Shown here: positions 30,829-63,307 of the stretch, piece by piece
Layout: each line of letters opens with the position of its first letter
Position numbering within the stretch: the stretch's first letter is position 1
Source of the DNA: a virus
Taxonomy: Duplodnaviria > Caudoviricetes
Length of the DNA stretch: 64,000 nt
IMG/VR virus record: IMGVR_UViG_2623620512_000004
Location: 1-64,000 of that record
Reading direction: 5' to 3' (one strand)
Notes under the pieces: model-generated
Told to the model about the DNA's origin: nothing
Databases searched by the model: none
What the model saw: only the letters and a program-made list of their open reading frames with translations
Translations under genes and position numbers: made by a program

Positions 30829-31361
30829 CGTATTTCCTCCACATCGTTTAGGGTTGCCTCACCAACGAGGAAAAGGACATCACCATCGTGGGTCTGCCAG
30901 TCGCTCATGAGCACCTTGACCTCATGCTCAATGAAATCGGCCTCTGCCTCTTCCTCAGTACATTCACTCTCTCGCCATTCCCAGTGCTTGAAATTATCCT
31001 TCAGACGGTTCTTGACAAGTTCCTCGGCACCTTTCTCCAAAGCCTGTAGGCTGTTGAAAATACCCATCAGCACCAGACTGTCATTGGAGAGGTGGCTGTC
31101 ACCCTCCCAGATAAGGTACACCTTGTCTTTCTTGGCCATGTCTGCGAACTCCGATGCCAGGACATTGAAGAACATACTCTTGACTTCTTCCTCATTGGCA
31201 TCTGGGTAGTCCGTTCCGATAATCAGCTGACAGTTGCCTGCATTGTTCGACCAGTCAATCATGAAACTGTAGAAACTCCTACCTTCCAGTTTGTCCTTGA
31301 TGGCCTTGCAGTCACTCTCACACAGGTAGCCTAAATCGTTTCCTAAAAATACTTCTATCAT
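30825..31361 (-). CDS. Hypothetical protein
   Basis: 178 aa; AGAGCA-ATG start. Confidence 0.6.
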   Translation of the reverse strand: MIEVFLGNDLGYLCESDCKAIKDKLEGRSFYSFMIDWSNNAGNCQLIIGTDYPDANEEEVKSMFFNVLASEFADMAKKDKVYLIWEGDSHLSNDSLVLMGIFNSLQALEKGAEELVKNRLKDNFKHWEWRESECTEEEAEADFIEHEVKVLMSDWQTHDGDVLFLVGEATLNDVEEIR

Positions 31362-31373
31362 TGCTCTTACAGT

Positions 31374-31568
31374 TTAAAGTTCATCATCATCATAGTCATC
31401 TGATTCTTCCTCTATTTCCTCATCGGCTACCAGACCATCGTATATCTCATCTATTGAATCTGATGGCAGATAGTTACACACTGCGATAGCAACCTTCTCG
31501 CTACCATTCTCTGTGAGCCAGTTATATACTGCCTCTTCCTTCTCACTGTTGAAACCGTTTCTTGTCAT
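31374..31568 (-). CDS. Small acidic hypothetical protein
   Basis: AGAGCA-ATG start; very D/E rich. Confidence 0.6.
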   Translation of the reverse strand: MTRNGFNSEKEEAVYNWLTENGSEKVAIAVCNYLPSDSIDEIYDGLVADEEIEEESDDYDDDEL

Positions 31569-31587
31569 TGCTCTATTCTTTTAAGGG

Positions 31588-31839
31588 TTAATCTTTCAAT
31601 TCTACTGCGGTCATTCCTCCATCCTTGATGTCAAATGCTCTGTTCAGTGCATTCACAAGAGACTTGATCGTTTTCGGGTGCTCTGGGATGGAGGCTTTGT
31701 AGGAGTGGCCAACCTTCAGCGTGTAACTGAAATACTCGGTCAGTTCCTCTACTGTTCCTGTAACTTCCTTAGTCTCTGTGGGGCGGCTACCGAAGAACAT
31801 TCTTGTTCTGGTAAGGGTATAGACTTTCTTCTCTTTCAT
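31588..31839 (-). CDS. Hypothetical protein
   Basis: 83-aa ORF in cassette. Confidence 0.55.
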   Translation of the reverse strand: MKEKKVYTLTRTRMFFGSRPTETKEVTGTVEELTEYFSYTLKVGHSYKASIPEHPKTIKSLVNALNRAFDIKDGGMTAVELKD

Positions 31840-31841
31840 AA

Positions 31842-32147
31842 TCAGATTCGCTTTACTGAGTTAGACATTACGTAGGTCTTAACGGCCAGAGGCAAACAGG
31901 TGTCGTAACTGATGCGAGTGTTGTTCTTTATCTCCCAGACATCTGCTGCATTGCTGCCTTCCAAATCCAGAACGAGCACAAGGAATCCTGCCTGTGCCTT
32001 GTTCATCATCTCCTGCAGGGCATCCAGACAGTTCAATCCTGTGTAGGCTGATTCACGTACCTTTGTGTCTCTGTTGAACGCATAGACGCAAAACTCTCCC
32101 TTGGTCTGCTTGTAATAGTCAAGCACTTTCTTCTGACTGTAATTCAT
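31842..32147 (-). CDS. Hypothetical protein
   Basis: AGAGCA-ATG start. Confidence 0.6.
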   Translation of the reverse strand: MNYSQKKVLDYYKQTKGEFCVYAFNRDTKVRESAYTGLNCLDALQEMMNKAQAGFLVLVLDLEGSNAADVWEIKNNTRISYDTCLPLAVKTYVMSNSVKRI

Positions 32148-32164
32148 TGCTCTTATTCTTTTGG

Positions 32165-32503
32165 TTAAAAATCAATCTTCTCAAATCCGTAGTCATCTAC
32201 GTAGTAGGCTGTTCCGTCCAGAACCACTACGTCTGATACTGAAAGACTGTGGCCAGTGTAACCTTCTGGCTTCTCTCCTTGGAACTTCATGTACAGGTAT
32301 TCGAGAGTGACGATGGCTTCCTCATTCTCACCTACCTCTGTCTGTCCCTCATAGACTTTCTCATACAGGTCGCTGTCGAGTTTGCAGAGGTCACCGCTCA
32401 TGGTGCAAAGGTCATTCTCCTTTACGAAGTCCAAACTTGAAAACATGATGTAACGTCCATTGGGGGCGTCATCCTTAATCTGATAAATGCTGTACGATTT
32501 CAT
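32165..32503 (-). CDS. YodL-domain protein
   Basis: YSIYQI...YEKVYEG...GHSLSVSDVVVL...YYVD..GF. Confidence 0.8.
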   Translation of the reverse strand: MKSYSIYQIKDDAPNGRYIMFSSLDFVKENDLCTMSGDLCKLDSDLYEKVYEGQTEVGENEEAIVTLEYLYMKFQGEKPEGYTGHSLSVSDVVVLDGTAYYVDDYGFEKIDF

Positions 32504-32544
32504 TGCTCTTATACTTTTATATTATTATATGCGGTTTGCACTGG

Positions 32545-32579
32545 CAAAGTTAGCCAATAATTTCTGAATATCAAAACGA
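32545..32579 (-). promoter_or_regulatory. Class A promoter/operator
   Basis: TCGTTTTGATATTCAGAA-N9-TAACTTTG. Confidence 0.75.
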
Positions 32580-32830
32580 TAAAACATTTAATTTCAGTAC
32601 ATTACAGAAGTTTAACGATTGACTTCAAAAGGCCAAATTCATAATTTCTTACAGGATTTTGACAAGAAAATCGAAATTCGCAAGGTGGCCGAAATTTCTT
32701 GCTTGTGGATAAGTATAAAGGGGGTTCGTTTGCGAACTGGCAGGGAACTTTATATTAAGAATTTAACAGGAGGTTAACTTAACTGAGCCTTAACAAAGTT
32801 AATGGGTGTCAAAATGGCCTTTCAGCAGCA
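32580..32830. repeat. Dispersed intergenic repeat copy (core GGATAAGTATAAAGGGGGT)
   Basis: 19-bp core identical at 32707, 43699 and 57362; similar flanks; degenerate copy near 1260-1450. Confidence 0.75.
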
Positions 32831-32871
32831 TCTTGGCACCCATTTATGGTACAGTAAAAATTTTCAACTTG

Positions 32872-33127: not shown

Positions 33128-35317
33128 TCAATTATCCAGAATTTCCTTCAAAATCTTGTATCTGTTGGGGAACATCTTCTTGAACCATCCTCTGTCTAAG
33201 TGATACCATTCCATTGATTCAGCAAAGTCCTCGGATGCAGAGTTTTCTCCATAGACAGTAGGAGAAGCGAGGTTACTTTTCTTCTGGTCGAGAGACATAG
33301 CTTCACTCCACCTTTTTCTTCCGCTTACAGAGTGCATCATCCTGTCAATATTGTGGCCTGTCTCATGGTAGAGAGTATTCCTTGCTGTCGTAACCTCTCC
33401 AACGCTGCCTGCCGCTTCTGATGCAGTGTTGCGATAGAAGGTAACAACACCATCACCTCCAGTTGCAAATGAATTGGTGAAATCCTTATAAACTTTCTTC
33501 CAATACACATCGTCTGGATTCTCGAAGTCTGCCAGATGCACCTCCTTGATGGATGCCTGCAACTTATTTGGCAACTGTTCGATTGCTTCTGCTATCTGAT
33601 ATGGTGTGAAGTGTTGGCCATCAGTATTCAAGTCCTCTGGAACGTATATCTTAATACCTCCCCTTGTCTCATATATTGTGCAGTTTCTCTTTGTTCCTTT
33701 TATAGAGAAACCATCAACACGACCAACATTTCTGGCAGTATCTTCGTTGGCATTCTTGGAAACCTTCTTGGTATAAGACTTAGTAGTGCTGTTGATAGTC
33801 TTGACGTCAGAAGTAAAGATGTAACTCTCCCATTTGTCTTTGAGGCCGCTTACAGTTTTCTTCATCTGGGTAATAGCGGTTTTCTTTATTGCCATTACGT
33901 CTATAGGCTTGGCTTTGTACCATTCGTCTAACACTGAGATTGTTTCCTTGCCAACTTCACTATACAGCTTCGCCTGTGACCTCAACTGGCCAATCGTTCT
34001 GATTTTAGAGTTATACGCTTCTGCCTTTTCTATTACCTTTGCTTTGGCGGCTTCGTATTTCTCTTCCCATCCAACAATATCATAGACTTTGTTTATCTTC
34101 AAATCAGATGTGGCAATCCATGTTTCAAAGTCGGATATGTTGACACCGTACTCCTTGGCATTTCGTCTGAGACTTGACAGGGACCAGTTTTCTCCTGTTT
34201 CGTATATTATCCTTCTGTTATTCGCTGCTCTGGTGATTCTTTCAATATCCTCCTTTGTCCTTGCAGCATGGCGTATGGCCGCTGCATCCTTTGGCGTATA
34301 TTTCAAATACTGAGGGTTGTCCTTGATGAAGTAGGGAAGCGTACCTCTATCCTCTGCATCCTCAATTCGTTTCCTATTACTTACTATCCATTCCTTGTAG
34401 TTCTTGGGAACATCAGTAATCATGTCCGGCTTCTCTCCTTCATCCTCCATGTTCCAGTACTCATCCTCGCTCATGATGATGGGGATGGCATAGCACATAT
34501 CGTTAGGGTGCCAACCAGTCCAGACAAAATCCTTCGGGTACTTGCCTGCCAATGAATCACAGATGTCATGTGCAGGATGGCTACCACTCAACTTTATCTC
34601 ATAGCCTGTGATGAAGTCAAACTGCTTCCAACGCTCCTGCTCGGCAGTGCGATAGGCCATGTTGATTTCAGATCGTGCCAGACGGATGCTTCGATACTCG
34701 CAGTCATGGATATTCGCTGCCTTGCCGTAGGTTTCCCAATAGTCATGCTGTAGTGAAGGGTAGTCCTGCAGGTACTTTGAGAGACGTTTTGACAACGTTA
34801 TAGCCGACATTCCCTTCTCGATGGCATTGCTGATGGTGCAGGAAATTGCGGCCTCTGTTTCCCTCGTATATTCGTCAGCCTGTCCCCAGAGTTTGGCAGA
34901 CAGATTCATTCCTCTGTCTCTGCGGTTCTGGAAGGCTTTGAGGGCATCACTGTTCGTCTGGTAGTACTTCTTGAAACGCTTGCCGTGTACCTGCGCCCGA
35001 TAGTGCTTCAATACCTTGTTGGCCAACATATCCTGTATGAGGTTGGACTGCCGCCATTCCTCACCAGTGCCACGCATGATGACAGTCTGCAACTCACCAA
35101 CGAACTGCGCCTGTATGTCCTTGACAGTCTCTCCTAACTCTGGATAGTTGCGGAAGAAAAATTCCGATGAGCCATCATAACCAGAATCAATGGCCAACTC
35201 TGCTACTCGCCTGTTGGCAATATCATATATGCTCTGAACCTGCATGACATATTGTGTCAATCTGGAGTTCAGAGCATTATACGCTTTCTTCTGGTTCGGT
35301 GTCCTTACTCTTGCCAT
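33128..35317 (-). CDS. MuF-like minor head protein with C-terminal zincin metallopeptidase domain
   Basis: RLARSEINMAY, CDSLAGKYPK, WHPNDMC (MuF); YHETGH and YG..SASEDFAES (zincin). Confidence 0.8.
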   Translation of the reverse strand: MARVRTPNQKKAYNALNSRLTQYVMQVQSIYDIANRRVAELAIDSGYDGSSEFFFRNYPELGETVKDIQAQFVGELQTVIMRGTGEEWRQSNLIQDMLANKVLKHYRAQVHGKRFKKYYQTNSDALKAFQNRRDRGMNLSAKLWGQADEYTRETEAAISCTISNAIEKGMSAITLSKRLSKYLQDYPSLQHDYWETYGKAANIHDCEYRSIRLARSEINMAYRTAEQERWKQFDFITGYEIKLSGSHPAHDICDSLAGKYPKDFVWTGWHPNDMCYAIPIIMSEDEYWNMEDEGEKPDMITDVPKNYKEWIVSNRKRIEDAEDRGTLPYFIKDNPQYLKYTPKDAAAIRHAARTKEDIERITRAANNRRIIYETGENWSLSSLRRNAKEYGVNISDFETWIATSDLKINKVYDIVGWEEKYEAAKAKVIEKAEAYNSKIRTIGQLRSQAKLYSEVGKETISVLDEWYKAKPIDVMAIKKTAITQMKKTVSGLKDKWESYIFTSDVKTINSTTKSYTKKVSKNANEDTARNVGRVDGFSIKGTKRNCTIYETRGGIKIYVPEDLNTDGQHFTPYQIAEAIEQLPNKLQASIKEVHLADFENPDDVYWKKVYKDFTNSFATGGDGVVTFYRNTASEAAGSVGEVTTARNTLYHETGHNIDRMMHSVSGRKRWSEAMSLDQKKSNLASPTVYGENSASEDFAESMEWYHLDRGWFKKMFPNRYKILKEILDN

Positions 35318-36256: not shown

Positions 36257-37435
36257 TTACTCTTTATCGTACAACTTAACAATCTCTTTGAGGGTGATGT
36301 TATGGTCAAACACCTCAGTAATCATGCTCATGGCATCCTCTCCGAAGATAGGACCATTACACAACTGATGGAAATCCAACTCTCCAAACGAGATATTCAT
36401 TTCAATCAACGTGGGCTCACCATTCTCATTGATAGCGAAGTCCCAAGAGATAAGACGTGAGGCACCATAGAAGCGATAGGCCAGTTTCTCGGCCAGAGCA
36501 ACACACTCCTTGAAGCCAGGAACCTCCATGCCTGCGAACTCGAAGCCCTGCGGATGGCGGTAGTACTTGTTAGCCGCTCCGTCATAGGCAACATCTTTCA
36601 AGTGGCCGTCATCAGTGATACCACAGACGATACCACCACTACTGCAGTTGTCAACACGGCTTCCGTCAACACCCATTCTGAGCACCGATGACAGGGCTTT
36701 CACCTTGCAGTCTCGGAACATGGTCATCACACGGACGGTATTCACACTGGAGCCGTTAATCTTATAGAGTGCAGGGTGCTGTTTGAACACCTCCTGTACA
36801 ATATACTGCTTATAGACGTTCGAGCCTTTGTAGTTCTCTGCGTTCTGGGTGTAGATGTAGTCAAGGAGCGATTCAACGCTGTCCGTCTCTGCATTCCAGA
36901 ACTTGACACCATGGCCACCCCAAGAGCCGATAGCAGATTTGACGATGACTTCCTTCGCATCCTTGCAAATCTTGATGAACTCTTCCAGAGAGATAGGCGA
37001 ATAGTCAGCACCGAGATATACACCGTCCATCTTACGAGCGAGGGTCTTAGGACGGTTCACGTCTGGGAAATACATATCGTACAGGTTCTTGTCATCAAGG
37101 GCTGTACTGCGCTGTGGATTGGTGAGGTATTCGTCAATGAACGCATAGAAGAAACTGTCTGGAATGTAGTACTTCAACTTCGACTTGTCTTTCTCGACAG
37201 CGTTATACACATCGTAATACTTCATGTTCAGAAGGCCATCGTGCCACATCAGCTTCTTTTCCCAGAAGGCCTTGATTTCCTTGGCCTGCTCTGCACTGAT
37301 GGGTGCGAGGTTGTTACGCTTCTGCTCTACTAAGGTGTCATAGGTTGCCAATCTCTGGATGGCGATTTTCTCAGAAAAGTCCTGCCGTGACACATAAGAC
37401 AGTTCCTCTGAGTTGATGATGTCTTTTACATTCAT
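36257..37435 (-). CDS. Sugar-transfer-associated ATP-grasp protein
   Basis: LDDKN, GSWGGHGV, QHP...SVNTVRVMT, VDNCSSGG, ISWDFAI, LIEMN. Confidence 0.8.
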   Translation of the reverse strand: MNVKDIINSEELSYVSRQDFSEKIAIQRLATYDTLVEQKRNNLAPISAEQAKEIKAFWEKKLMWHDGLLNMKYYDVYNAVEKDKSKLKYYIPDSFFYAFIDEYLTNPQRSTALDDKNLYDMYFPDVNRPKTLARKMDGVYLGADYSPISLEEFIKICKDAKEVIVKSAIGSWGGHGVKFWNAETDSVESLLDYIYTQNAENYKGSNVYKQYIVQEVFKQHPALYKINGSSVNTVRVMTMFRDCKVKALSSVLRMGVDGSRVDNCSSGGIVCGITDDGHLKDVAYDGAANKYYRHPQGFEFAGMEVPGFKECVALAEKLAYRFYGASRLISWDFAINENGEPTLIEMNISFGELDFHQLCNGPIFGEDAMSMITEVFDHNITLKEIVKLYDKE

Positions 37436-37471
37436 ACTTAACTTCGTTTAATTTAACAATATCATTGCTCT

Positions 37472-38923
37472 TTACATTACTTGCTCTCCAATGGAGAAAG
37501 CGGTGGCCCTGTTTTCAGAGGCGGTCTTTTCCTCCTTCTGAATCTGTTCAAGGGTGGCCTGTGCATCGTCACTCTCACCGAAACGCTGAATAGATTCAAG
37601 TTGGCTCTCGATAGCCTTACCACCGTTGGCCTTCATGCGTCTGTTAATCTCGGCCATCTCATCATTCTGGATAAATGGAGTGATGACGTGCTCAACGTCA
37701 ATATTATCAATATCGTTCTTCCACTCCTTGGGACCGAATACTTTGAGGAAAGCCTTGATGACGTTGCACTCACGCTCCAAAAACTCGATCCATGCGCCAG
37801 CCTCATCACCTATCTTCAAGTGGGCATCGGTCAACATGGTCTGACGTGCATCAAAGCCGATATTACCAAGGCCCTTCATGTTCTCAAACGAAATGTCCGG
37901 CATCTGAGCCTGCATCCAGTAGAGTTTGAGCATGGTATCAACATGATACTTCAAAGCCTCGATAGCCTGCGACCAAGAGACGTAGGACACATCACCGCCA
38001 TTCTCTGTACGGAATATCCTTCGGCTCTCACCCTTATCCTCACTGCCCTTGATGCCACCAGAGATTTTCAGTACTGGTGCGCTGTTGTAGGCAATAACAT
38101 TCGAGTTACGAGAGAGGGTGTATTCTATCTCTTCTCTGAGGCCAGTCAGTCCGTCATAGGCAGGAACATTACGATAGGCATAAACGCCAGGAATCTTCAT
38201 CAGAACGATTTCCTCACCAGAAACCTCACCTTCCTCTGATTCCTCATGAAGCACCTCTACCCATCCACCGTCTGAAAGTTCCTGCTTCCAGATGTAGTGG
38301 CGGTTATCGGTATAAGTCTCAAAGAAGGTTACTTCCTCTCCGTTGGCATCTTTCTTCTTATACTCTAACGACATGGCCAACATATCGTCAAGTTCGTCAA
38401 TGAGAGGGTACAGTTTCACACCGTCCATCGGTGAGTACGTCTTGCACTTCAACTTGAAGTTGCTTTCAAAGCCATAGAGCGTGTTCTTCTGCTTGACGGC
38501 ATACCAGACAGTGAATATCTCACAGGATGCGTAGTAGGACAGCGCACGTTTCAAGTTCACACTGTCTATACGAACATTCTTGTAGATGGCTTCAATGGCC
38601 TTGACAATGGCCTGCTTCTTATCGTCTGGCTTGCCATCCTCCTTGGTGACGTTCGAATAGACACGCTTAACAGGGATGGCGAAGGTAAACTCAGCCATGC
38701 GTCTCGACAACAGCTTTTCAAGTCCGATGTAGATTCTGGAGGACTTTTCAAGACCCTTATCCTTCAACGCGATCGTATCACTACAAACCTTGTGCATGGT
38801 AGGCTCATAGTCCTTGATACAATCCTTCCAATCCTTGACAGGAACGGTTTTCTGCTTCAACGCAGTTACTATGGCTCCGTTATCGCCACTCGTAAAGTCT
38901 ATGTACTTCGATATATCGCCCAT
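37472..38923 (-). CDS. Portal protein (SPP1 gp6-like)
   Basis: Size and position in head module; start re-assigned to MGDISKY downstream of promoter. Confidence 0.8.
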   Translation of the reverse strand: MGDISKYIDFTSGDNGAIVTALKQKTVPVKDWKDCIKDYEPTMHKVCSDTIALKDKGLEKSSRIYIGLEKLLSRRMAEFTFAIPVKRVYSNVTKEDGKPDDKKQAIVKAIEAIYKNVRIDSVNLKRALSYYASCEIFTVWYAVKQKNTLYGFESNFKLKCKTYSPMDGVKLYPLIDELDDMLAMSLEYKKKDANGEEVTFFETYTDNRHYIWKQELSDGGWVEVLHEESEEGEVSGEEIVLMKIPGVYAYRNVPAYDGLTGLREEIEYTLSRNSNVIAYNSAPVLKISGGIKGSEDKGESRRIFRTENGGDVSYVSWSQAIEALKYHVDTMLKLYWMQAQMPDISFENMKGLGNIGFDARQTMLTDAHLKIGDEAGAWIEFLERECNVIKAFLKVFGPKEWKNDIDNIDVEHVITPFIQNDEMAEINRRMKANGGKAIESQLESIQRFGESDDAQATLEQIQKEEKTASENRATAFSIGEQVM

Positions 38924-38949
38924 CTTTGTGACTTTTGTAATTACGGTCG

Positions 38950-38983
38950 CAAAGTTAGTTAAAATCATTTGAAAAACAAATAC
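38950..38983 (-). promoter_or_regulatory. Class B promoter/operator
   Basis: GTATTTGTTTTTCAAAT-N9-TAACTTTG upstream of portal. Confidence 0.7.
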
Positions 38984-39370
38984 TTTTCACACTTTTTTTG
39001 AAAAAGCCGTTTAAATTCGCTGTGAGACGTTTGTTTTTCTGGGGTGGGTAGTTATAAGGATGAAGGGGTAAAAACTCGCTGTGGACTTCGGAATCCTTTT
39101 TATTTCCTGCGTTTTCTGTAAGGTAATAAGAGTGCGCTTTGGATATTCGAGGTTTTCGCCCTCCTGCTTTGCAGTTTCGCTCTGCCACACTGTGTCGCTT
39201 GTGGATGCGGATAGTCTCTGGCTAACCATCAATGCCTGCGCTTTCAAGTGCCTTTTGTTTATGGAGAGAGCCACTTCAAAGGCTACCGAAAATACGGATA
39301 ACTCTCCTTGCTGATTTCTCAGCCGAACGTTCGTTGTGGATGGCCAGAACGTTGAATCTGGCCGTACCGC

Positions 39371-39852: not shown

Positions 39853-40005
39853 TCAATAACCCTTTACTTCCATTCTGAACTTTTTGAATAGCGGCCAAGC
39901 GATTTCGTTAGCCTCCTTCTCTCCAACCTCGCAGTAGTGCGTTCTGTCAGTCAGATTGTCTAAGACATCTAACAGGAACTCCTTTTCTTTCTTCGTCAGT
40001 TTCAT
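39853..40005 (-). CDS. Hypothetical protein (50 aa, not in ORF track)
   Basis: MKLTKKEKEFLLDVLDNL... fills the gap exactly. Confidence 0.5.
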   Translation of the reverse strand: MKLTKKEKEFLLDVLDNLTDRTHYCEVGEKEANEIAWPLFKKFRMEVKGY

Positions 40006-40009
40006 ACCT

Positions 40010-40294
40010 CTACTTGTTTACGACTAACGGCTGACCTACCCAGAACAGCAGGTACTCGCCTAACTTGTGATTGTTTCTGACACTATCAAGCACCTTCTCT
40101 GACAAGGAGGCACGTTCTGTTACCTCCTTGCCGAAGAGTGGGCTGTGAGAGACAGCCTTTGCAATACGCTTACTGTTGGCCATTGCATAGGCTATCTCCT
40201 TGGCACCACCGATGGTCATTCCGATTTCGTTGTCTGATGCGTCAAACAGCTTAACGACCACCCTTGCACTGAACAATCTACCTTCGTTTGCCAT
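40010..40294 (-). CDS. Hypothetical protein
   Basis: Coupled ORF. Confidence 0.55.
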   Translation of the reverse strand: MANEGRLFSARVVVKLFDASDNEIGMTIGGAKEIAYAMANSKRIAKAVSHSPLFGKEVTERASLSEKVLDSVRNNHKLGEYLLFWVGQPLVVNK

Positions 40295-40647
40295 TACTCT
40301 TCCTCCGAATACAGGTTATTCAAGAAGTTCTTCAAGTAGGTGTCATCTATCTCCGAGAGTTTCACAGGGTCAAAGTGAATGTCTCTCTCCACTCCAAGAC
40401 CCCATGAGTTCTTGACAGTCTGGAGTTCTGCAAGGCTGACGTAGCCGTACTCACCTTCACCTGCAGGATTGATGGTGATACCGTAGCCTATCTTGTTTTC
40501 AAGATCCGCCTCCAGAATGTACCACGTCCAGTTGACACCGCACATGAAGAACTTCACAACACAGATTGCATCCTTCTTCTTACCATCTTGGCTGTAGAGG
40601 GGATATTCCTGCAACCGTTTCTCTACTTCTTTCGTAATCAATTTCAT
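40294..40647 (-). CDS. DUF2958-like protein
   Basis: LYSQDG...VKFF...WTWYILE...EYGYVSLAEL...VERDIHF. Confidence 0.75.
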   Translation of the reverse strand: MKLITKEVEKRLQEYPLYSQDGKKKDAICVVKFFMCGVNWTWYILEADLENKIGYGITINPAGEGEYGYVSLAELQTVKNSWGLGVERDIHFDPVKLSEIDDTYLKNFLNNLYSEEE

Positions 40648-53341: not shown

Positions 53342-53596
53342 TCAGTCATCAAGAGAGTAACCAAGTTCATTCAGTGCAGCGACAACTTCCTCTGGCAGTT
53401 CAAAACAGCCATCGTAGTCCTCAATCTGCTTGCCGTCAAACCAGATTCCACCTTCCATGTAGGTTTCCTCATCATCCTCATCTTCTTGGTACTCCCAAGA
53501 ACCATACTCGCCATCAATATCGAGTTTTACCCATGCACCGTTATCAAACTTGTATTCACGTGCACCATCCTTAACGTTCTTTTCTACGATTTCCAT
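53342..53596 (-). CDS. Acidic hypothetical protein
   Basis: AGAGCA-ATG start; DYDG.FELP.EV motif. Confidence 0.6.
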   Translation of the reverse strand: MEIVEKNVKDGAREYKFDNGAWVKLDIDGEYGSWEYQEDEDDEETYMEGGIWFDGKQIEDYDGCFELPEEVVAALNELGYSLDD

Positions 53597-53641
53597 TGCT
53601 CTATCTTTTAGATGGCAGGGTGGTTAGCCCTGCCGTTACCT

Positions 53642-54025
53642 TTACTTCTTGTTCGCTACAGTGACCAGCCAGTCTATCTCTGCTTCTGTGAGCGGATATT
53701 CCTGCTGACGCTTCCAGTTGATGATGAACAGCTTTCCAACTGCATCTTCCAGTCTGTCGTAAATCTCGGATGGGATATGACCGTCAAAGTCATCTATCAA
53801 ACCACGGACGAAGTTCTCCTTCTGCTCCTTGGCCTTCTTCTCGGTGTCCTTGACCTGCTTCTGGTAGATTTCAGCCTTCTGGTAGAAGTTACAACCTAAC
53901 TCCAGACCGAAGTCATTCTTGATGTTCTCACACATCTGGTCGATGTCGTGCTCTCCGAAGAAGTCCGCAAAATAGGTATCACCTTTGAGGGACTGTAAAT
54001 TCTGAATTTCTTCTGCTCGTTTCAT
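53642..54025 (-). CDS. Hypothetical protein
   Basis: AGAGCA-ATG start after class A promoter. Confidence 0.6.
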   Translation of the reverse strand: MKRAEEIQNLQSLKGDTYFADFFGEHDIDQMCENIKNDFGLELGCNFYQKAEIYQKQVKDTEKKAKEQKENFVRGLIDDFDGHIPSEIYDRLEDAVGKLFIINWKRQQEYPLTEAEIDWLVTVANKK

Positions 54026-54054
54026 TGCTCTTTACTTTTAGGGGTTTGCTCTGG

Positions 54055-55387: not shown

Positions 55388-55635
55388 TTCAGCTTACTTA
55401 TTGCATCGTCAAACACACCTCTCAGTCCGTTGCTGTAGCGATGGTTAAAGACGTGCTTTCTGAAATACTCAGATACGTCCTTATCCCAATAGCCGCTGTT
55501 GATAACAACCTTGACCCTTTTCTCCAGTTCTCGAATGACATTGGCATTATGCTTGTTCCTTCTGCTGACGTGTTCGTTCCAAAGTCTCTTCACGTCTTTC
55601 CATGAGCAGGGGATTTTGATTACAACCTCTTTCAT
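55384..55635 (-). CDS. Hypothetical protein
   Basis: Coupled ORF. Confidence 0.5.
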   Translation of the reverse strand: MKEVVIKIPCSWKDVKRLWNEHVSRRNKHNANVIRELEKRVKVVINSGYWDKDVSEYFRKHVFNHRYSNGLRGVFDDAISKLK

Positions 55636-56240
55636 TTCTCTGCCTCCTTACGGTTGAATGGTCCTACATAGTCAGCCCAGATGGAAATGAACTGCTTGCC
55701 GAAGTAAACGGCCAGTTCCTCTGACTTGACAGCAAGGCGAGCCGAGACGCTCGAGTACGAGAACGACCAAGCGTCGTTCGAGTTCGCACAAGCGAGACCG
55801 CCATTCGCACCGTAGTACGAGCTACCGCCACCGAGCCACAGCGCACGGTCTTTCTTCCATTGCTCTGACTTGCCTTTCAGTTCCTCTTCCGTCCAGAGAG
55901 TAAACCAAGGGTACCAACGGTATTCATCAGTAGTAAACTGAGGCTCCCATCCTTCGTTGAGGGCGGCAGCGATAGTCTTTAACTTGATGTAGGCTACCTC
56001 ATCTTTTTCCAAGAAGCATCGACTACCATCAATGGGTGACGAATAACGTAACTTGTAGAAATCTACAGGCTCGAAGCCGAGTACATGACAGGCATCCTCA
56101 TAGGTCTTTACTCTCTCTGTGATGGGTAGCAAGGTGTCAATACCTTTAACCTTAACATCATACTTCTCTGCGAGTGCAATCATTTCTTTTGCGAACTCCT
56201 GTGCCTTTTCCTGTGGCACATCTAACTTTAACTCTTTCAT
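55632..56240 (-). CDS. DGR target 2 (remote, non-tail protein with VR)
   Basis: 202 aa from AGAGCA-ATG start; VR2 encodes LWLGGGSSYYGANGGLACANSNDAWSFSYSSVSARL. Confidence 0.85.
   Translation of the reverse strand: MKELKLDVPQEKAQEFAKEMIALAEKYDVKVKGIDTLLPITERVKTYEDACHVLGFEPVDFYKLRYSSPIDGSRCFLEKDEVAYIKLKTIAAALNEGWEPQFTTDEYRWYPWFTLWTEEELKGKSEQWKKDRALWLGGGSSYYGANGGLACANSNDAWSFSYSSVSARLAVKSEELAVYFGKQFISIWADYVGPFNRKEAEK
55735..55842 (-). repeat. DGR variable repeat VR2
   Basis: Ungapped 108-bp match to TR; 13 mismatches by manual count, 11 at TR adenines. Confidence 0.92.
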
Positions 56241-56292
56241 TGCTCTATATTGGTTTAAACGTGCAGGGCGGTTACTCCTGCGAATCCTATAA

Positions 56293-56661
56293 CTATCCAA
56301 ACTGCTTTCTGGCTTCGACATATTCCTTATGCCATTGCTTACGTATCTTCTCACCGTCAACCTCTTTCAAGGCTCTGGTGAACAATCCAGTCAGTACGGC
56401 ACCAAAGAGGATCGTGTTCTTATTCAGCTTCACGCCTCCTTGGCAGAGAGCGAGTTGGCCATAACGTCCATAGTGGTAGCCCTTGATGTCTGATACTCGC
56501 TGATGGTCTTTCAGCATTTCAACGCTCCAACAGGCACCAGAGTAGATTTTCTTCGTGCCGTAGTAGTCATTCGAATAGCCGTTCTGCTGTGATACCAGAC
56601 GTGCCTTTATCTCATAGTGGCCACAGTCGCTCAACAGGTAGATGTATCTGGGCTTAATCAT
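56293..56661 (-). CDS. Hypothetical protein
   Basis: 122-aa ORF. Confidence 0.55.
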   Translation of the reverse strand: MIKPRYIYLLSDCGHYEIKARLVSQQNGYSNDYYGTKKIYSGACWSVEMLKDHQRVSDIKGYHYGRYGQLALCQGGVKLNKNTILFGAVLTGLFTRALKEVDGEKIRKQWHKEYVEARKQFG

Positions 56662-56941
56662 TTCTTCTGGCCTTTAGGTAAGCATCTATTGTATCAAATC
56701 CAAGCGACTGCACGTAGGCTTTACGCTTCTCAACAGTAGAGGCACACCGAGCACACACCATACAATCTGGCGTGAGTTTCTTCGGACTGCAAGGCTCATA
56801 CATCTGGCTTTCGTCAATGACGATGACGCTGTGCCGTCTGCACTTGAAGGCGGCTTCATATTCAGCATCATCCTTGTTCTCGAAGGTGGGGCAGTGACAT
56901 ACACCGCCTAACTCATCGTTTCTTAATACATACAATTCCAT
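56654..56941 (-). CDS. Hypothetical Cys-rich protein
   Basis: AGAGCA-ATG start. Confidence 0.6.
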   Translation of the reverse strand: MELYVLRNDELGGVCHCPTFENKDDAEYEAAFKCRRHSVIVIDESQMYEPCSPKKLTPDCMVCARCASTVEKRKAYVQSLGFDTIDAYLKARRND

Positions 56942-56953
56942 TGCTCTGATACT

Positions 56954-57190
56954 TTATAGTAAACTTTCTATTGTCAACGCATCAAGTTCCTTCTGGTCGA
57001 GAGTGTAGCCAACCTGTGCCATCTGGCGAACAGCTTGCTTCTTGGCATTCTTCAGCGTCTTATACATTCCGATTTGGAACCAGTACTCACCATCTTGGAT
57101 GGCAGTAACAATAATCTGGTCTGTCTCATGTCCGTTGAGGCAGAACCGCACAGTCTTTCTTTCCGAGTTCGTACATTTAACCGATTTCAT
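56954..57190 (-). CDS. Hypothetical protein
   Basis: AGAGCA-ATG start after class A promoter. Confidence 0.6.
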   Translation of the reverse strand: MKSVKCTNSERKTVRFCLNGHETDQIIVTAIQDGEYWFQIGMYKTLKNAKKQAVRQMAQVGYTLDQKELDALTIESLL

Positions 57191-57220
57191 TGCTCTTTAC
57201 GTTTAATTGATTTGCACTGG

Positions 57221-57255
57221 CAAAGTTACTGCTTTATTTCTGAATATCAAAACGA
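57221..57255 (-). promoter_or_regulatory. Class A promoter/operator
   Basis: TCGTTTTGATATTCAGAA-N9-TAACTTTG. Confidence 0.75.
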
Positions 57256-57259
57256 TAAA

Positions 57260-57530
57260 ACGAAAAGTTTCATGCACATTGACTAAGTTTAACTGTTGAC
57301 TTTTTGCACATTTTGGACGTTTTGTGAAAAATCCGCAAGGTGCTCGAAATTTCAAGTGAGCGGATAAGTATAAAGGGGGTGGAATTTGAAACGCATGGTG
57401 AACTTTATATTAAGAATTTAACTTTTCATTTACTTAACTGAACCTTAACAATGTTAACTGCTGTCAAAATGCTCCATTTTTGAACTTGTTTGCTTACTAT
57501 CTGGTACTGATGAGGCCATTAACAGAGTAT
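57260..57530. repeat. Dispersed intergenic repeat copy
   Basis: Shares blocks with 43613-43647 and 32707-32815. Confidence 0.75.
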
Positions 57531-58681: not shown

Positions 58682-59507
58682 AGGTCGAATAGTGATTTTT
58701 CTGTTTCAAAATTATATACCAAAACCTCTAACTTTCTTCTTTTACCCCCCCCCCATTTCTATCGAAATTCGCTACATTCATGTTCATATCGACAGACTTG
58801 TAGTTCCAATGATTTTTCTCAATGTACTTTTCAAGTGTAGCCGTCATGAATTGCGAGAGGATAAACTTTCCCTTTATACTTTCCAATCTATGGAGGAGTT
58901 CCTCCAGATTTTCTTCAGTGAATCCATGATAGTGCTTCTGTTCACTTCCGGGGTACGGAGGGTCGAGATAGAAGAACGTCTCTGGCGTGTCTCTCTGCTC
59001 TATGCACAACAGGGCATCACGGCAACTTATCTGAACGTCTTTCAATCTTTCATACAGAGCATCGGTAAAACTATCTCTCTTATTTCTCATAACTCTGCCG
59101 GAATGTGAGCCTCCAGAACCGTTGCACCATTTCCAACCTCCATCTGGAGAACCAGAGAATGATACGTTTGTAAGCATCCATACAGCCCAAGCCTTATCAA
59201 TATCTTGGCAGTCCGCTCCAAGCCATATCTTCCTTGCCTTCTTCCATTCTGTTTCACTATGAAGGGTATTCTTGATACGTTCCTCCAGAGCATCATAGTT
59301 TGTCTGTACTTGCTTGTAGAACGTGATGAGGTTGTCATTTATATCATTGATGGCTTCCAGATACGATGGACCTTTGGCAAAGAAAACTGCACCGCCACCA
59401 AAGAACGGCTCACAATAAATCCTGTGAGGTGGTATCATAGGCAGTATCGTTTTAATCATCTGCTGTTTTCCACCATAGTATGTGATAGGCGTCTTTACTG
59501 GTCTCAT
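58678..59507 (-). CDS. Dam-like DNA adenine methyltransferase, C-terminus frameshifted at G10 tract
   Basis: YYGGKQ, EPFFGGGAVFF, NDIN, YLDPPY; current frame stops at 58728, shifted frame gives KRRKLEVLVYNF...LFDL. Confidence 0.85.
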
Positions 59508-60334
59508 TTCTTTTCTTGCTTTACGTACTCTTCTGGTGTGCAGCCCATCTTTTCCTTGAACAGGTCTTTGAGCATTTTCAAGTCATCTGGCTTATAGCGT
59601 TGGGTGTTATTGATGAGGGAATACGCCATAGACTTCATGTGGTCCTCTTGGTAACGTTTGTAGCCCTTGGGCTTGGTAGTTGCAGGGGTGGCAACATTTG
59701 AGCCGCTTAGAGGACTTGATTTTACTGGCAGTCCGTTCAGTCTGCAATACTCTTCATAGGTGACGGCCGTTTTCGCATATTCAGCATCAGCCTTTTCCTT
59801 TAACTTTCTGTCGTGCTCTTCATATTCATTGGCACGTTCCCTCAGAAACGTCCTCAACGATGTCGTGATAACGATGGGGTCAACAGAGCCATAGAACCTG
59901 CCATACCTTCCAGACTTGAAGCGGTGCAGGAAAAGCATTATCTCCGTGACCTTCAGAAAGCCAAACTCGGTGCTTATCACACTGGCGCATTGCTGTAGTG
60001 CATGGCCAGATAACTTATCCCTGCAGCCGCAGTATTCTGACAGATCGTGCAGATGAGCCATGAGCCACGCAACAGGGAACTTGCCGTCAAAGTCAGTCTT
60101 TAACTGAATAAGGGTGGGGTACTCTCCGAACATACAGGCATCATCATCCAACTGCTTCTTGAACAGGTAGTCTGCATGATAGGTGTCAAGGACTTCCACG
60201 CCCTTGCTACCATATTTCTGCATCACTCCGTTTCTTAACTGAGACAGTTCAATCGTCAGAGAGGAAAGCGGAGATTGTTCTGGCCGCATCAGCTGTTCGC
60301 TGTTCCGTTGTATTATTTCCGTTACTGATTCCAT
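59504..60334 (-). CDS. Replication-associated protein (putative helicase loader)
   Basis: Follows initiator; EIMLFL.RFKSG.YGRFYG motif; AGAGCA-ATG start. Confidence 0.55.
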   Translation of the reverse strand: MESVTEIIQRNSEQLMRPEQSPLSSLTIELSQLRNGVMQKYGSKGVEVLDTYHADYLFKKQLDDDACMFGEYPTLIQLKTDFDGKFPVAWLMAHLHDLSEYCGCRDKLSGHALQQCASVISTEFGFLKVTEIMLFLHRFKSGRYGRFYGSVDPIVITTSLRTFLRERANEYEEHDRKLKEKADAEYAKTAVTYEEYCRLNGLPVKSSPLSGSNVATPATTKPKGYKRYQEDHMKSMAYSLINNTQRYKPDDLKMLKDLFKEKMGCTPEEYVKQEKK

Positions 60335-61013
60335 TGCTCTTAGTGCTATATGATTTTTCGTTTCTGCTCCAATACCGTATCCTCTTTTCAAGAACCCACG
60401 TCTTTTCCATTTCCCAACGCATCCTGCTACCAGACTTATTCGTCTGGCTCCACCAATCATAGAAATTACGCACCATTTCCTTTCCATATATCTGTACGTA
60501 AGGAATGAGGGAGTTATAGAACGCTGCCATACGCTTCTTGGTGTCAGCTGCCACATCTTCCTTGGTTTTCTTTGGGCGTGTTATATTTGTTTTGTTTGAT
60601 TCTTCGCCAGAAGAATCTATAATATTACCTTCTTTAGATGTGGACGTTTGTTGGTCGTTAGTTGGACTTTGGTTGGACGTTTGCTGGACGCTTTCTGGAT
60701 TTACATCTTGATAACTTTCATAATTACAGATAGTTATAAGCGAAAATCGGTTGGACGCTTGGACTATAATTTCACCTGTTTCCTGTAGTTTCTGGATGCA
60801 GGTGCGGATAACTCTTTCCGATATACCTGTCTCTGCCATAAGCCTGTTCCTTCCAGTGATAAGTTGGCCTCGCTTGATTTCCACGCCCTGCCACCGTCCA
60901 TCCTTTACATTGGCATTGAGAAGCAAATGCAGAAACAGATGAACCATTTCAGATTTGCCGTACCATTCCCAATCTTGGAACCTGCGGTATATCTTTACCC
61001 AACTTTCAGACAT
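60249..61013 (-). CDS. Phage replication initiator protein
   Basis: WVKIYR...WEWY, HLLLNAN, RGQLITGR..L, ITICNYESYQ, FYDWW...MRWE. Confidence 0.75.
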   Translation of the reverse strand: MSESWVKIYRRFQDWEWYGKSEMVHLFLHLLLNANVKDGRWQGVEIKRGQLITGRNRLMAETGISERVIRTCIQKLQETGEIIVQASNRFSLITICNYESYQDVNPESVQQTSNQSPTNDQQTSTSKEGNIIDSSGEESNKTNITRPKKTKEDVAADTKKRMAAFYNSLIPYVQIYGKEMVRNFYDWWSQTNKSGSRMRWEMEKTWVLEKRIRYWSRNEKSYSTKSNGISNGNNTTEQRTADAARTISAFLSDD

Positions 61014-61151
61014 AATCTCACATACTGATAATAAAAACTGCCCCGTCTTTCGTGTTCCTCTCCAAGTGTGGAGGTGGCATAGGAATACTACTCGACAGAG
61101 CATTTATATTTCGTTCCAACTGATGCCACTCAGTTGATTGTGTTACGTTTG

Positions 61152-61185
61152 CAAAGGTAACGAATATTATTTGAATAACAAATAC
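61152..61185 (-). promoter_or_regulatory. Class B promoter/operator
   Basis: GTATTTGTTATTCAAAT-N9-TACCTTTG upstream of replication leader. Confidence 0.7.
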
Positions 61186-61209
61186 TATTAACATCATTTT
61201 TAACGAAGT

Positions 61210-61701
61210 TTACAGATTTACCTTGATGCCTTTCAGTGTGCTCAGACGCTTCACCTCCAGAGTGTACCGCTTAATCATCTGCTCCAGTTCGCTATCCAGA
61301 TAATGCTTCGTGCCATGTGCCTTGACGTTGAGCCATTCGACCTTCTGAGGTCCTATCTTCTTGATAAGGTTCTCCCTGTACTTGATGAGGTGGTCGGCAC
61401 TGATGCGGTTGCAGTAGTGGCACTCCCCATGACAGTTATCCTCATCAAACCTTGTGGCCATGTGGATTCTGGAATGGAAGTGTCCGCAATCGACCTCTTC
61501 AAAGGGCTTGATTCGTCCGCAACTGATACATCTGATATAGCCGTTAGGCATTGCGTCTCTCAGTCGGATATACAGGGCAAAGACCCTATCCAGTTTCGCT
61601 ACCAAATTGGGCTTGCTGCGAGGCTTCTTGGTTTTCTCCGTATTTGCCTCTTTGCTTCCTTTTTTAGCCTTCTTTGGCCAGTGGCGCATATAGTAGGGCA
61701 T
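61210..61701 (-). CDS. ninG: NinG/Rap-like junction endonuclease
   Basis: LDRVFALYIRLRD, CISCG, DCGHF, TRFDEDNCHGEC..CN. Confidence 0.85.
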   Translation of the reverse strand: MPYYMRHWPKKAKKGSKEANTEKTKKPRSKPNLVAKLDRVFALYIRLRDAMPNGYIRCISCGRIKPFEEVDCGHFHSRIHMATRFDEDNCHGECHYCNRISADHLIKYRENLIKKIGPQKVEWLNVKAHGTKHYLDSELEQMIKRYTLEVKRLSTLKGIKVNL

Positions 61702-61703
61702 GG

Positions 61704-62075
61704 CTACACGAATTTAACTTTGTGAACCATTTTTCCGTTCTCACTCTCTACCTTGCCGAAGAACGTTGATGGCGTGGTGTCACACACCTCAAAGATGAAC
61801 TCCAGACCTATTGCCGTTGCAACCAGAAATTCTGTCTGGCATCCGGCACTGTGGTTCCACTTCTTCATCATGTAGATGCAGTCGCATTCCAACAGGGCCT
61901 TGATGTCAACCTTCATGTGCTCTGCTGTGGTGCTCTCTGGCGGCAGTCCGTTGGCCATGGGGTTGAACACTTCGTAACCTAACTTTTCCAGATATTCCTG
62001 TATTCTGGCAAAGTCCGCTTTTCTCTCTTCGTAGTTATGGCCACTGATGGGGCCGCTGATATATACTTTCTTCAT
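61704..62075 (-). CDS. DUF4406 / nucleoside deoxyribosyltransferase-like protein
   Basis: KVYISGPISG, FNP, CDCIYM...W..S.GC..E. Confidence 0.75.
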   Translation of the reverse strand: MKKVYISGPISGHNYEERKADFARIQEYLEKLGYEVFNPMANGLPPESTTAEHMKVDIKALLECDCIYMMKKWNHSAGCQTEFLVATAIGLEFIFEVCDTTPSTFFGKVESENGKMVHKVKFV

Positions 62076-63250
62076 TGGAACATTACATTTGTGAGTTGTT
62101 TTCCGTGTGACATAATGCACCATCTACTGGAGTTAGGTGCTTCCAGATCTATTTTCAAGTCGGCCACATTGCCGAAGCGTCTGTAGGTTCCGCACAAGTC
62201 CACTACCCAACCGTCCTTGCCTTTGAACGGACGGATGGCACGGCCTACCATCTGATAGTAGAGAGCGAGGGATTTTGTCGGACGGCCAAGGATAATCGTA
62301 TCTAACTCTGGGTAGTCGAATCCAGTAGTCAGCGTACCTACGTTGGCCACGACCTTGATACTTCCTGCCTTGAACTCTTCAAGGATTTCCTCTCGGTCTC
62401 TCTTAGGGGTCTCTCCTGTGACGATACCTGCATTGATACCTACAGACTGTAACTTGTTGACAAGGCTCTCTGCTTCCTCGATGTATCTGGTGAATACCAG
62501 GACACCGTTTCTGGGTATGCCACTCTTTGGCTTCAATACTCGGATGGTAGTCTGGGACAGCTTATCATAAAAGCCGCTTCTCTTATACTCTTCCTTCAGC
62601 GACTTGTCATCATAATCTGCACCTGTGGAGTTGGAACGTACCCTGCTCATGTCAACAGCCGTACAGTCATAGTAGTGGAGGTTTGCGAGATAGCCCTTGG
62701 CCAGAAGGTCTGAAATCTGACAGTAGTACAGGACGGATGAGAATATTCTTGGGTTCGTCCTTGTGAGGAACTTCAAGGTGCTGCCACCTCTGAATGAGCA
62801 CAGTCTGTACGGTGTGGCCGTAAGACCTACCACCCTTCGCTCTGTAGCCTCGATGAACTGCTTATACTGTCCTGCCTTGGAGTTGACGTAATGGCACTCA
62901 TCAATCATGACGTTCTTGAAGTGCTCGAAGTCCTCCATGTGATTCATGACGCTTCCGATGGTGGCGAAGGTGATGCGGTTTATATCCTTCCTGCCTACCG
63001 ATGCCGAATAGACTGAGGCATCCCAACAGCCGTAACTCTGCAACTTGGCGAAGTTCTGTTCCAGAATCTCCTTCTGGGGCTGTAGAATCAGAAGCGGACC
63101 ATCTAACTTAGAGGCTATGTCGGCAATAACGAGGCTCTTACCTGCTCCTGTCGGCAGGATAAGCAAGCCGTTACGTGCTCCCTTGGACTGGAAGCATCTT
63201 ACAGCTGCCGTGCTTGCATCCCTCTGATAGTCTCTTAAAACGTATTTCAT
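62072..63250 (-). CDS. SF2 DEAD/DEAH-box helicase
   Basis: LRDYQ, LPTGAGKS, IDECH, GLTATP, TGFD.P, QMVGRAIR. Confidence 0.92.
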   Translation of the reverse strand: MKYVLRDYQRDASTAAVRCFQSKGARNGLLILPTGAGKSLVIADIASKLDGPLLILQPQKEILEQNFAKLQSYGCWDASVYSASVGRKDINRITFATIGSVMNHMEDFEHFKNVMIDECHYVNSKAGQYKQFIEATERRVVGLTATPYRLCSFRGGSTLKFLTRTNPRIFSSVLYYCQISDLLAKGYLANLHYYDCTAVDMSRVRSNSTGADYDDKSLKEEYKRSGFYDKLSQTTIRVLKPKSGIPRNGVLVFTRYIEEAESLVNKLQSVGINAGIVTGETPKRDREEILEEFKAGSIKVVANVGTLTTGFDYPELDTIILGRPTKSLALYYQMVGRAIRPFKGKDGWVVDLCGTYRRFGNVADLKIDLEAPNSSRWCIMSHGKQLTNVMFQ

Positions 63251-63307
63251 TGCTCTTAGTGCTTAAAGGGTAGAGAGGTCGAAGCCTCCCTACCTGTTGT
63301 CATTGTC

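Follow-up and report, generated by a model that had tools for sequence, protein, structure and literature searches.

Why should a single word of nine nucleotides, which includes the start codon itself, stand at the head of about 20 separate genes in one phage genome? The question is raised by the viral sequence IMGVR_UViG_2623620512_000004 (Duplodnaviria; Caudoviricetes), in which the word AGAGCAATG recurs at gene starts. The analysed window covers positions 1–64,000 of one contig of 72,374 bp, which IMG/VR classes as a provirus with a CheckV completeness of 100% and in which the minus strand carries nearly all genes. A preliminary description of this window had proposed that the motif is a shared target site for a small RNA (sRNA) or for an RNA-binding protein. 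The sequence data favor the sRNA: a predicted sRNA complementary to the motif, covariation in its stem, co-occurrence of RNA and motif among relatives, and one coordinated change of seed and target all point in this direction. We therefore consider it likely that the phage encodes a trans-acting sRNA that covers the start codons of a regulon made up of the phage's own genes.

Counting the nonamer on both strands, a check suggested in the preliminary description, yields 23 copies in the window, 22 of them on the coding (minus) strand and one on the plus strand, compared to an expectation of 1.22 (sd 1.00, maximum 4) from 100 dinucleotide shuffles, none of which reached 23. Of the minus-strand copies, 18 open real open reading frames (ORFs), three adjoin starts (37465, 50346 and 52590), and one is internal. 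All 18 starts had been listed before, each by the position of the A in its minus-strand ATG; each coordinate is exact, each ORF is 64–392 amino acids (aa) long, and the three near-start sites also lie where they had been placed. Three further copies were absent from the earlier list: the internal one at 55860, the plus-strand copy at 43910–43918, and a 19th motif-led start at 68547, which belongs to a Sak4-like gene beyond the window but within the 72,374-bp genome.

The motif is restricted to a particular class of genes. Among 108 minus-strand genes (called by us with a greedy ORF procedure in which the motif ATG was adopted as the start of three genes), it heads 19 of 79 genes outside the predicted late region and 0 of 29 within it (Fisher p = 0.0016). 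There are no copies below 31359, in agreement with the earlier remark that the motif is not seen at capsid, tail or lysis starts. Within 31361–68547, the motif heads 19 of 35 uncoupled genes, that is, genes separated from the upstream gene by a gap of at least 6 nt, versus 0 of 34 genes that are coupled to the upstream gene by overlapping or abutting it (p = 1.3e-7). Consequently, the motif sits at the beginning of translational units, among them all five repeated cassettes with a class A promoter, every one of which it had been said to lead (5/5). The tagged genes that match known families encode a Sak4-like protein, a helicase, a protein with ArdC-N and zincin peptidase domains, a YodL-like protein, and DUF2958 and DUF6633 proteins, which by these family matches are early replication/recombination functions and accessory functions of the entry type; 13 of the 18 target proteins in the window have no Pfam or PHROG match. 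The motif is not a general host signal: in the genome of a Prevotella vespertina isolate that carries a related prophage, 11 copies are found in the 38 kb around the prophage versus 37 in the remaining 2.76 Mb.

A sequence logo of the 19 sites is invariant from -6 to +3. Conservation is also seen in a block TAAA at -15 to -12, and the second codons are rich in A; the extended consensus is approximately TAAA-N5-(A)AGAGCAAUG-AAA. Bacteroidota start translation without Shine-Dalgarno pairing, and the motif is not a Shine-Dalgarno sequence, as had been argued before, since AGAGCA has no GGAGG core and directly adjoins the AUG rather than lying 5–10 nt upstream. The Kozak-like context of Bacteroidia, as given in the part of the source considered here, consists of A at -3, -6, -12 and -13, and changing A to G at -3 cost reporters in F. 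johnsoniae 70% of their expression (PMC6847099). All 19 phage sites have A at -6, and the TAAA block spans -12 and -13; the preferred A at -3 is replaced by G in 19/19. The tag thus agrees with the initiation context in its A-tract and its A at -6 and departs from it in the GAGC core and the G at -3, which makes it look like a translation start with a built-in sRNA site. It is the G/C core that gives a duplex of 9–10 bp with this tag its stability.

The candidate regulator is found at the lone plus-strand copy. The coding-strand sequence of this copy is CATTGCTCT, and it is located within the 470 nt that separate a gene for an HNH endonuclease from the next cassette. The predicted sRNA gene is ~67–73 nt long and occupies 43873–43945 on the minus strand, with the HNH gene on one side and a class A cassette on the other. 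It is preceded by a putative -7 box TAACTTTG at 43946–43953 (-), read from the sequence; its assignment as the sRNA promoter is based on the TAnnTTTG consensus of Bacteroidota promoters. In the predicted fold, a 5' hairpin of 9 bp (GAAAUCGU...ACGAUUUC; 43918–43941, -) is followed by the single-stranded seed CAUUGCUCUU (43909–43918, -), the exact complement of AGAGCAAUG, and by a hairpin with an inner GUGA loop and a U6 run (43873–43908, -), the stable hairpin and U-run expected of an intrinsic terminator. The fold has an energy of -31.1 kcal/mol (z = -5.41) that was matched by 0 of 200 shuffles. The 3' arm of the 5' hairpin is in addition complementary to codons 2–3 (AAA UCG) of four targets. 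A generic sigma-70 promoter and terminator scan, which does not extend to Bacteroidota promoters, flagged neither the promoter nor the terminator of the sRNA; Rfam yielded no family at gathering threshold in the window and none at E up to 1 on 43780–44000. A plus-strand ORF (43814–44521) that would start at the plus-strand motif was considered as a protein-coding candidate and rejected; it has no Pfam match, and the minus-strand ORF that it overlaps is the HNH/NUMOD endonuclease.

To place the element in an evolutionary context, relatives were recruited by their large terminase subunit (TerL), with 80 loci kept of 318 viral relatives, together with 37 loci from genomes. A covariance model of the domain formed by the seed and the terminator (model R1) matches at 43873–43921 in the window (E 1.2e-10), directly after terL in 68 of the 80 viral loci (E <=2.3e-7) and in 10 of the 37 genome loci (E <=9.5e-7), which together with the window amounts to 79 positive loci. 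Within these 79 loci, the seed reads CATTGCTCTT in 76, and a putative T[AT]nnTTTG promoter box is present 25–45 nt upstream of the seed in 77. In the relatives examined, the sRNA directly follows terL without an intervening HNH gene. The only invariant blocks in two alignments (A1 and A2) are the seed and the GUGA loop.

The sequence around these blocks changes while the structure is retained. The succession of hairpin, seed and terminator is predicted in 30 of 31 distinct full-length sequences, the exception (L007) having no clean 3' hairpin. The 5' stems of different clades are unrelated in sequence (AAAUCGU/ACGAUUU, GAAAACAC/GUGUUUUC, GCUGC/GCAG and GAAGACUGU/GCAGUUUUC), with pairing kept between clades. 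For the terminator helix, 25 distinct sequences were compared; pairing holds in 87.5% of cells, changes on both sides are seen in 9 of 10 pairs, and the covariation score is 0.935 compared to 0.279 for shuffles (reached by 0/500) and 0.10–0.29 for slid controls. A full-length MAFFT alignment of the 31 sRNA sequences analyzed with RNAalifold recovered no more than 3 pairs, as the variable 5' hairpin is misaligned; conservation of structure was judged from per-sequence folds and from the alignment of the 3' domain.

The seed also occurs outside this type of RNA. In 51 loci (17 distinct sequences), the same seed is placed in the loop of the middle hairpin of an unrelated scaffold with three hairpins, and a third seed-bearing form is found at L008:13107; the focal genome has the first type only. 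Neither the type 1 nor the type 2 RNA matches Rfam. Examples of the second and third scaffolds with a CAUUGCUC(U/A) seed are L017:16892–16995, L056:18722–18843, L086:20501–20618 and L008:~13060–13170. A hairpin loop of the UGUGAA type is common to all three scaffolds and might be the handle for a common RNA-binding protein. One sRNA in a Paraprevotella relative (L088:3820–3890) carries tandem seeds, CAUUGCUUUUUU followed by CAUUGCUCUU.

RNA and motif are found together. In 57 of the 80 viral loci, no other NNNNNNATG word is as common as AGAGCAATG, and whole related genomes contain 12–26 copies of ARAGCAATG on the coding strand, 1–3 on the other strand and 0–2 copies of the reversed control. 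At least three motif-led ORFs are present in 79 of 92 loci with any seed-bearing RNA versus 0 of 26 loci without, where the loci are related and do not represent 118 independent trials. In L011 and L014, whose TerL is as similar as that of many positive loci, the element downstream of terL is decayed and one motif copy is present in 21 kb.

The two partners have also changed together. In the Prevotella phage L098, the type 1 seed reads CAUUGCUUUU (lineage seed CAUUGCUUU), and the gene starts carry AAAGCAATG (4) or GAAGCAATG (1), with AGAGCAATG at none; in four genomes with the seed CAUUGCUCU, AAAG is found at only 5 of 58 starts. Fisher's test for this co-change gives p = 2e-4, for what is a single evolutionary event. 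Outside the seed, a similar correspondence is seen between the hairpin and the sequence that follows the tag. Where the 3' arm of the hairpin is GUGUUUUC, targets continue with ATGAAAACA and T at +7 is found in 0 of 63, compared to 31 of 93 in the clade with the arm ACGAUUUC, where about a third of the targets continue with ATGAAATCG.

Predicted duplexes single out the same genes. The 13 best sense-strand duplexes of the sRNA in the whole genome (-36.9 to -25.0 kcal/mol) are all at motif sites. When only the seed is considered, the energies for motif genes range from -14.7 to -25.2 kcal/mol (median -17.7), compared to a median of -7.5 for 88 other genes, and the accessible, conserved seed is the exact complement of 19 gene starts on messages encoded 6–25 kb away. 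The best seed-only scores among untagged genes belong to the starts at 50338, where a tag lies 8 nt upstream (-19.0 kcal/mol at 50344–50352), and 54382, where the tag is represented by the G-U variant AGAGTAATG. This variant begins two genes (ATG 54382 and 40294, -), with which wobble pairing of the seed is possible at seed-only energies of -16.0 and -13.3 kcal/mol.

We propose the following mechanism. Every independently translated early or accessory gene would carry the AGAGCAAUG tag in its translation initiation region. The predicted sRNA gene at 43873–43945 would be transcribed from its own host-type promoter and ended at the intrinsic terminator, and the RNA would expose 5'-CAUUGCUCUU-3' between its two hairpins. 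This segment would pair with -7 to +3 of each tagged mRNA, and in some targets the pairing could be lengthened to 16–21 bp through invasion of one hairpin arm. With the AUG covered, initiation by the 30S subunit would be blocked, and silencing would extend to the downstream cistrons whose translation is coupled to that of the tagged gene. Owing to the shared tag and the single seed, one RNA could shut off about 20 translational units at once, and the capsid, tail and packaging genes would be unaffected. The RNA may act late in the lytic cycle, when it would end early expression, and/or in the lysogen, where it would serve as a second lock on the lytic genes. What is observed is the motif, its position, its restriction to certain genes, a conserved structured element complementary to it, and the fact that motif and element occur and vary together; transcription of the element, repression rather than activation as the effect of pairing, and the timing are what we infer from this.

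Several observations weigh against a trans-acting sRNA of this kind or limit its scope. Fewer than three motif-led ORFs are found in 13 of the 92 RNA-positive loci; five of these loci are shorter than 5 kb, but L049 and L083 have only two such ORFs in their full 21.5 kb. In the L098 phage, the ancestral seeds CAUUGCUCA and CAUUGCUCU persist in two more elements, and the switch of seed and target is therefore partial. The ArdC orthologue of this phage starts without the motif, with GGAGG plus CTAAGT in that place; the ArdC orthologues have four distinct start contexts, three of them with the motif, too few for a test of conservation. The L098 form AAAGCAATG is also a tolerated minority form in CAUUGCUCU phages, which suggests that one mismatch may not matter. 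The TAAA block at -15 to -12 is not complementary to the sRNA and fits the A-tract of Bacteroidia initiation regions, which indicates that the extended motif in part supports translation as such. The 37 host copies outside the P. vespertina prophage, compared to 20 for the reversed control, amount to a modest excess. On the side of the RNA, predicted folds often include the C of the seed's CAU in the basal pairing of the 5' hairpin, and the mean unpaired probability of the seed is 0.45–0.89 in per-sequence folds. The promoter assignment depends on the TAnnTTTG consensus, and geometry is what suggests repression as the direction of the effect. The only RNA-library data are assembled contigs that span the locus; ends, strand and level cannot be read from them, and they are possibly derived from DNA. 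Four runs were found, of which X1 and X2, from one study, cover the sRNA locus on 40000–47999 (for example, X1 41601–44023 and X2 43684–44179), and none of this was used as evidence.

The main alternative explanations have to account for the same observations. The motif could be an optimized, Kozak-like start cassette for initiation independent of Shine-Dalgarno pairing that was copied among early genes by recombination, with the element beside terL being unrelated. Its fixed position relative to the AUG is what such a cassette would have, the tagged genes are those that need their own initiation, as the contrast between uncoupled and coupled genes indicates, and the A at -6 and the A-tract at -14 to -12 match positive determinants described for F. 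johnsoniae (PMC6847099). However, the part of that source considered here lists no positive determinant that corresponds to the G/C core at -5, -3 and -2, and G at -3 is the worst substitution there (PMC6847099). Moreover, the late structural genes, which require high output, do not carry the motif, nor is it host-wide, and the cassette leaves unexplained the invariant single-stranded complement in three scaffolds, the joint loss of RNA and motif, and the coordinated change of seed and target. We regard this explanation as unlikely.

A binding or cleavage site of a phage protein, either a translational repressor or an endoribonuclease, would also place a common sequence at many starts, with the antisense RNA in a secondary role such as an antidote or timer. 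Phages are known to shut off early genes at initiation regions in this way; T4 RegA is a translational repressor and RegB an endoribonuclease, both of them proteins that act at the initiation regions of early genes. A protein of this kind could hide among the small proteins without family matches noted above; nevertheless, none of the proteins scanned matches an RNA-binding or RNase family, and a protein site does not require a complementary RNA whose seed co-varies with it and whose flanks co-vary with those of the target. The RNA-binding-protein half of the preliminary proposal is conceivable but not needed, and this explanation appears improbable to us. We give still less credence to the idea that the repeat is a recombination joint (a "boundary sequence") for swapping accessory cassettes, of which the copy near terL would be an inverted relic. 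The tagged genes are indeed mostly small, accessory and variable between relatives, and similarity around the tag extends over 25–74 nt in several repeat families, with whole class A cassettes repeated. Yet only nine letters are invariant, and the inverted copy is syntenic in 79 loci, complete with promoter box, hairpin covariation and terminator, where a relic would decay; the decayed form downstream of terL is found only in L011 and L014, the two loci with a single motif copy.

Returning to the trans-acting sRNA, a broader version of it can be put forward tentatively, and we consider this version rather doubtful. The universal 9-nt tag and one to three sRNAs could constitute a family-wide master switch of temperate Bacteroidota phages of Prevotella, Bacteroidaceae, Parabacteroides, Paraprevotella and relatives, in which the sRNA of a prophage silences the early genes of superinfecting relatives and so confers immunity. 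Such cross-silencing could be expected because the family shows almost no variation in either tag or seed, and escape would be hard because about 20 sites would have to change together. The CAUUGCUUU seed with AAAGCAAUG tags would then represent a shift of specificity in progress through a G-U-tolerant intermediate.

The motif sites, all on the minus strand, are distributed as follows, with the span of the motif given first. At the upstream end of the window, 63248–63256 begins the helicase gene (62072–63250, 392 aa; ResIII/Helicase_C) and is complementary to the sRNA over 21 contiguous nt, and 60332–60340 begins the gene for the DUF6633 protein (59504–60334, 276 aa). The site at 57188–57196 belongs to the first gene of a class A cassette (56954–57190, 78 aa); gene starts follow at 56939–56947 (56654–56941, 95 aa) and 56238–56246 (55632–56240, 202 aa; phrog_11581). 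Inside the 202-aa gene, the copy at 55858–55866 is out of frame and opens an ORF of 12 codons; it is probably due to chance or a vestige, since about one copy per window is expected at random. The first gene of the next class A cassette has its motif at 54023–54031 (53642–54025, 127 aa), and the starts at 53594–53602 (53342–53596, 84 aa) and 52881–52889 (52602–52883, 93 aa) are followed by a copy at 52588–52596, 12 nt past the upstream stop, which opens a 48-aa ORF (52444–52590) in competition with a 70-aa ORF that starts at 52609. Further sites are the gene start at 52388–52396 (51923–52390, 155 aa) and the copy at 50344–50352, 8 nt upstream of the ATG at 50338 of an acetyltransferase-like gene (49835–50338, 167 aa).

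Beyond the sRNA gene, in the sense direction, lies 43516–43524, the first gene of a class A cassette (43303–43518, 71 aa) with 18 nt of sRNA complementarity, followed by the start of the ArdC-N and zincin peptidase gene at 42787–42795 (41788–42789, 333 aa), the first gene of another class A cassette at 41270–41278 (40889–41272, 127 aa), and the starts at 40867–40875 (40666–40869, 67 aa) and 40645–40653 (DUF2958 protein, 40294–40647, 117 aa). The copy at 37463–37471 opens a mini-ORF of 5 codons between the portal gene (37472–38968) and an ATP-grasp gene (36257–37435), its ATG at 37465 being 30 nt upstream of the ATG at 37435. The YodL-like first gene of the last class A cassette has its motif at 32501–32509 (32165–32503, 112 aa), again with 18 nt of sRNA complementarity, and is followed by the starts at 32145–32153 (31842–32147, 101 aa), 31566–31574 (31374–31568, 64 aa) and 31359–31367 (30825–31361, 178 aa).

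We assign this gut prophage to Bacteroidota on account of a protein with a BACON domain, the TAnnTTTG promoter boxes, and relatives in Prevotella, Bacteroidaceae and Parabacteroides genomes. In the sense direction, the layout starts with a CI-like repressor (69483–69881, on the strand opposite to most genes), followed by a Cro-like helix-turn-helix protein, a sigma-like regulator and the Sak4-like annealing protein, and then by the helicase and many small genes. TerS (46030–46419) and TerL (44516–46030; phrog_2) are followed by the HNH/NUMOD homing-endonuclease gene, identified by a Pfam match, which is inserted between terL and the sRNA promoter (43992–44519, -); a second HNH gene is located at 67098–67613, beyond the window. 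Portal, capsid and tail genes extend down to ~1800. A weak tyrosine-integrase-like frame (802–1182, +) and the CI-like repressor operon (genome 69483–70610, +) lie near opposite ends of the genome, which fits a temperate lifestyle. A DNA search of cultured phages returned short unrelated matches only, and the best TerL protein identity there is 31%, which indicates that there is no cultured free-phage relative. Related prophages with both the RNA and the tag are nevertheless present in cultured isolates, namely Prevotella vespertina A2879, Prevotella sp. KH2C16 and Parabacteroides faecalis AGMB00274, so that the system is directly testable.

The genome has several other features of possible regulatory relevance. 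Upstream of three of the five class A promoters lies a repeated block of 130–250 nt (43548–43870, 57211–57520 and 32522–32860, -) that is rich in GTTAA/TTAAC words, such as CAGTTAAGTTAAC and GTTAAACTTAG, which may be operator sites for a phage regulator. Class B promoter-like repeats, composed of an upstream block GTATTTGTT(A/T)TTCAAAT and a TAnnTTTG box, are found at 30372–30436, 38941–39005, 51427–51491 and 61143–61207; they head genes without the motif, such as the portal gene, and may therefore constitute a middle or late promoter class. The GGAGGA word, which resembles a Shine-Dalgarno sequence, is located 6–9 nt upstream of the ATGs at 43289, 43044, 40294, 30828, 27125 and 3553 (-) and is unexpected in a Bacteroidota phage. 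A phage tRNA with anticodon CAU (25099–25172, -) has a C1 x A72 mismatch atop the acceptor stem, which is a hallmark of bacterial initiator tRNA, and lacks the three G-C pairs in the anticodon stem; it may be an initiator, an elongator Met or an Ile2 tRNA. Finally, the C-terminus of a 729-aa protein (33128–35317, -) has a sub-threshold Pfam match to the anthrax lethal factor N/C-terminal domain (E 8.8e-4, 19.5 bits versus a cut-off of 27.4), which probably reflects a zincin-like fold and on which we base no claim.

If the proposed regulation is correct, a single seed addresses about one fifth of the phage genes through a tag in their start sites, in a host phylum that is not known to possess the classical sRNA chaperones. 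It would offer a compact, portable means of turning sets of genes on and off in Bacteroides and Prevotella, supply a new model of the timing or locking of early gene programs by temperate gut phages, and be a natural case of co-evolution between many targets and one regulator. Among known systems, the closest are the c4 RNA of P1/P7 and the sar RNA of P22, small structured phage RNAs that act in trans by pairing around a ribosome binding site and blocking translation, and that are tied to immunity or lysogeny in the account considered here (PMC12197685). The predicted RNA resembles them in being phage-encoded and structured, with an exposed segment that matches initiation regions of phage mRNA. 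In contrast to c4 and sar, each of which acts on one operon or gene (ant), a single seed here corresponds to some 20 separate initiation sites, distributed over the 37 kb from 31361 to 68547; the host belongs to a different phylum, one without initiation led by Shine-Dalgarno sequences, and several unrelated scaffolds share the seed. Rfam, which includes a C4 family, gave no match for the predicted sRNA that would place it in the P1/P7 c4-type family. In its logic the system is similar to T4 RegA and RegB, where a shared feature of initiation regions likewise lets one phage factor silence many early mRNAs and spare the late genes; unlike these proteins, the proposed factor is an RNA that recognizes its targets by base pairing, and there is no homology.

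On the side of the host, the Bacteroides sRNAs GibS, MasB and BatR are chromosomal and regulate host metabolism, as far as the portions of the sources considered here describe them (PMC7366714, PMC10994844, PMC10861873). With these the predicted RNA would share, within the same portions, a Bacteroidota-type promoter, an intrinsic terminator and a single-stranded seed directed at or near several start codons, and it would differ from them in being phage-borne, in targeting the phage's own genes, and in using a standardized 9-mer site that includes the AUG. The extended motif resembles the Kozak-like context of Bacteroidia in the A at -6 and the A-tract at -14 to -12 and departs from it in the G at -3, in the G/C-rich core, and in marking one class of phage genes without occurring in late genes or most host genes. 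A search of the literature, in which supplementary files were outside the scope, and of Rfam returned no description of such a system, and the literal motif text gave primers only. Known phage sRNAs act on one or a few messages, and the part of the review considered here makes no mention of Bacteroidota (PMC12197685). None of the nearest systems, whether c4/sar, the Bacteroides sRNAs or RegA/RegB, combines an AUG-containing tag at about 20 of a phage's own gene starts with one to three RNAs that share a seed, and what would be new relative to the phage antisense sRNAs is the scale of the regulon and its setting in Bacteroidota.

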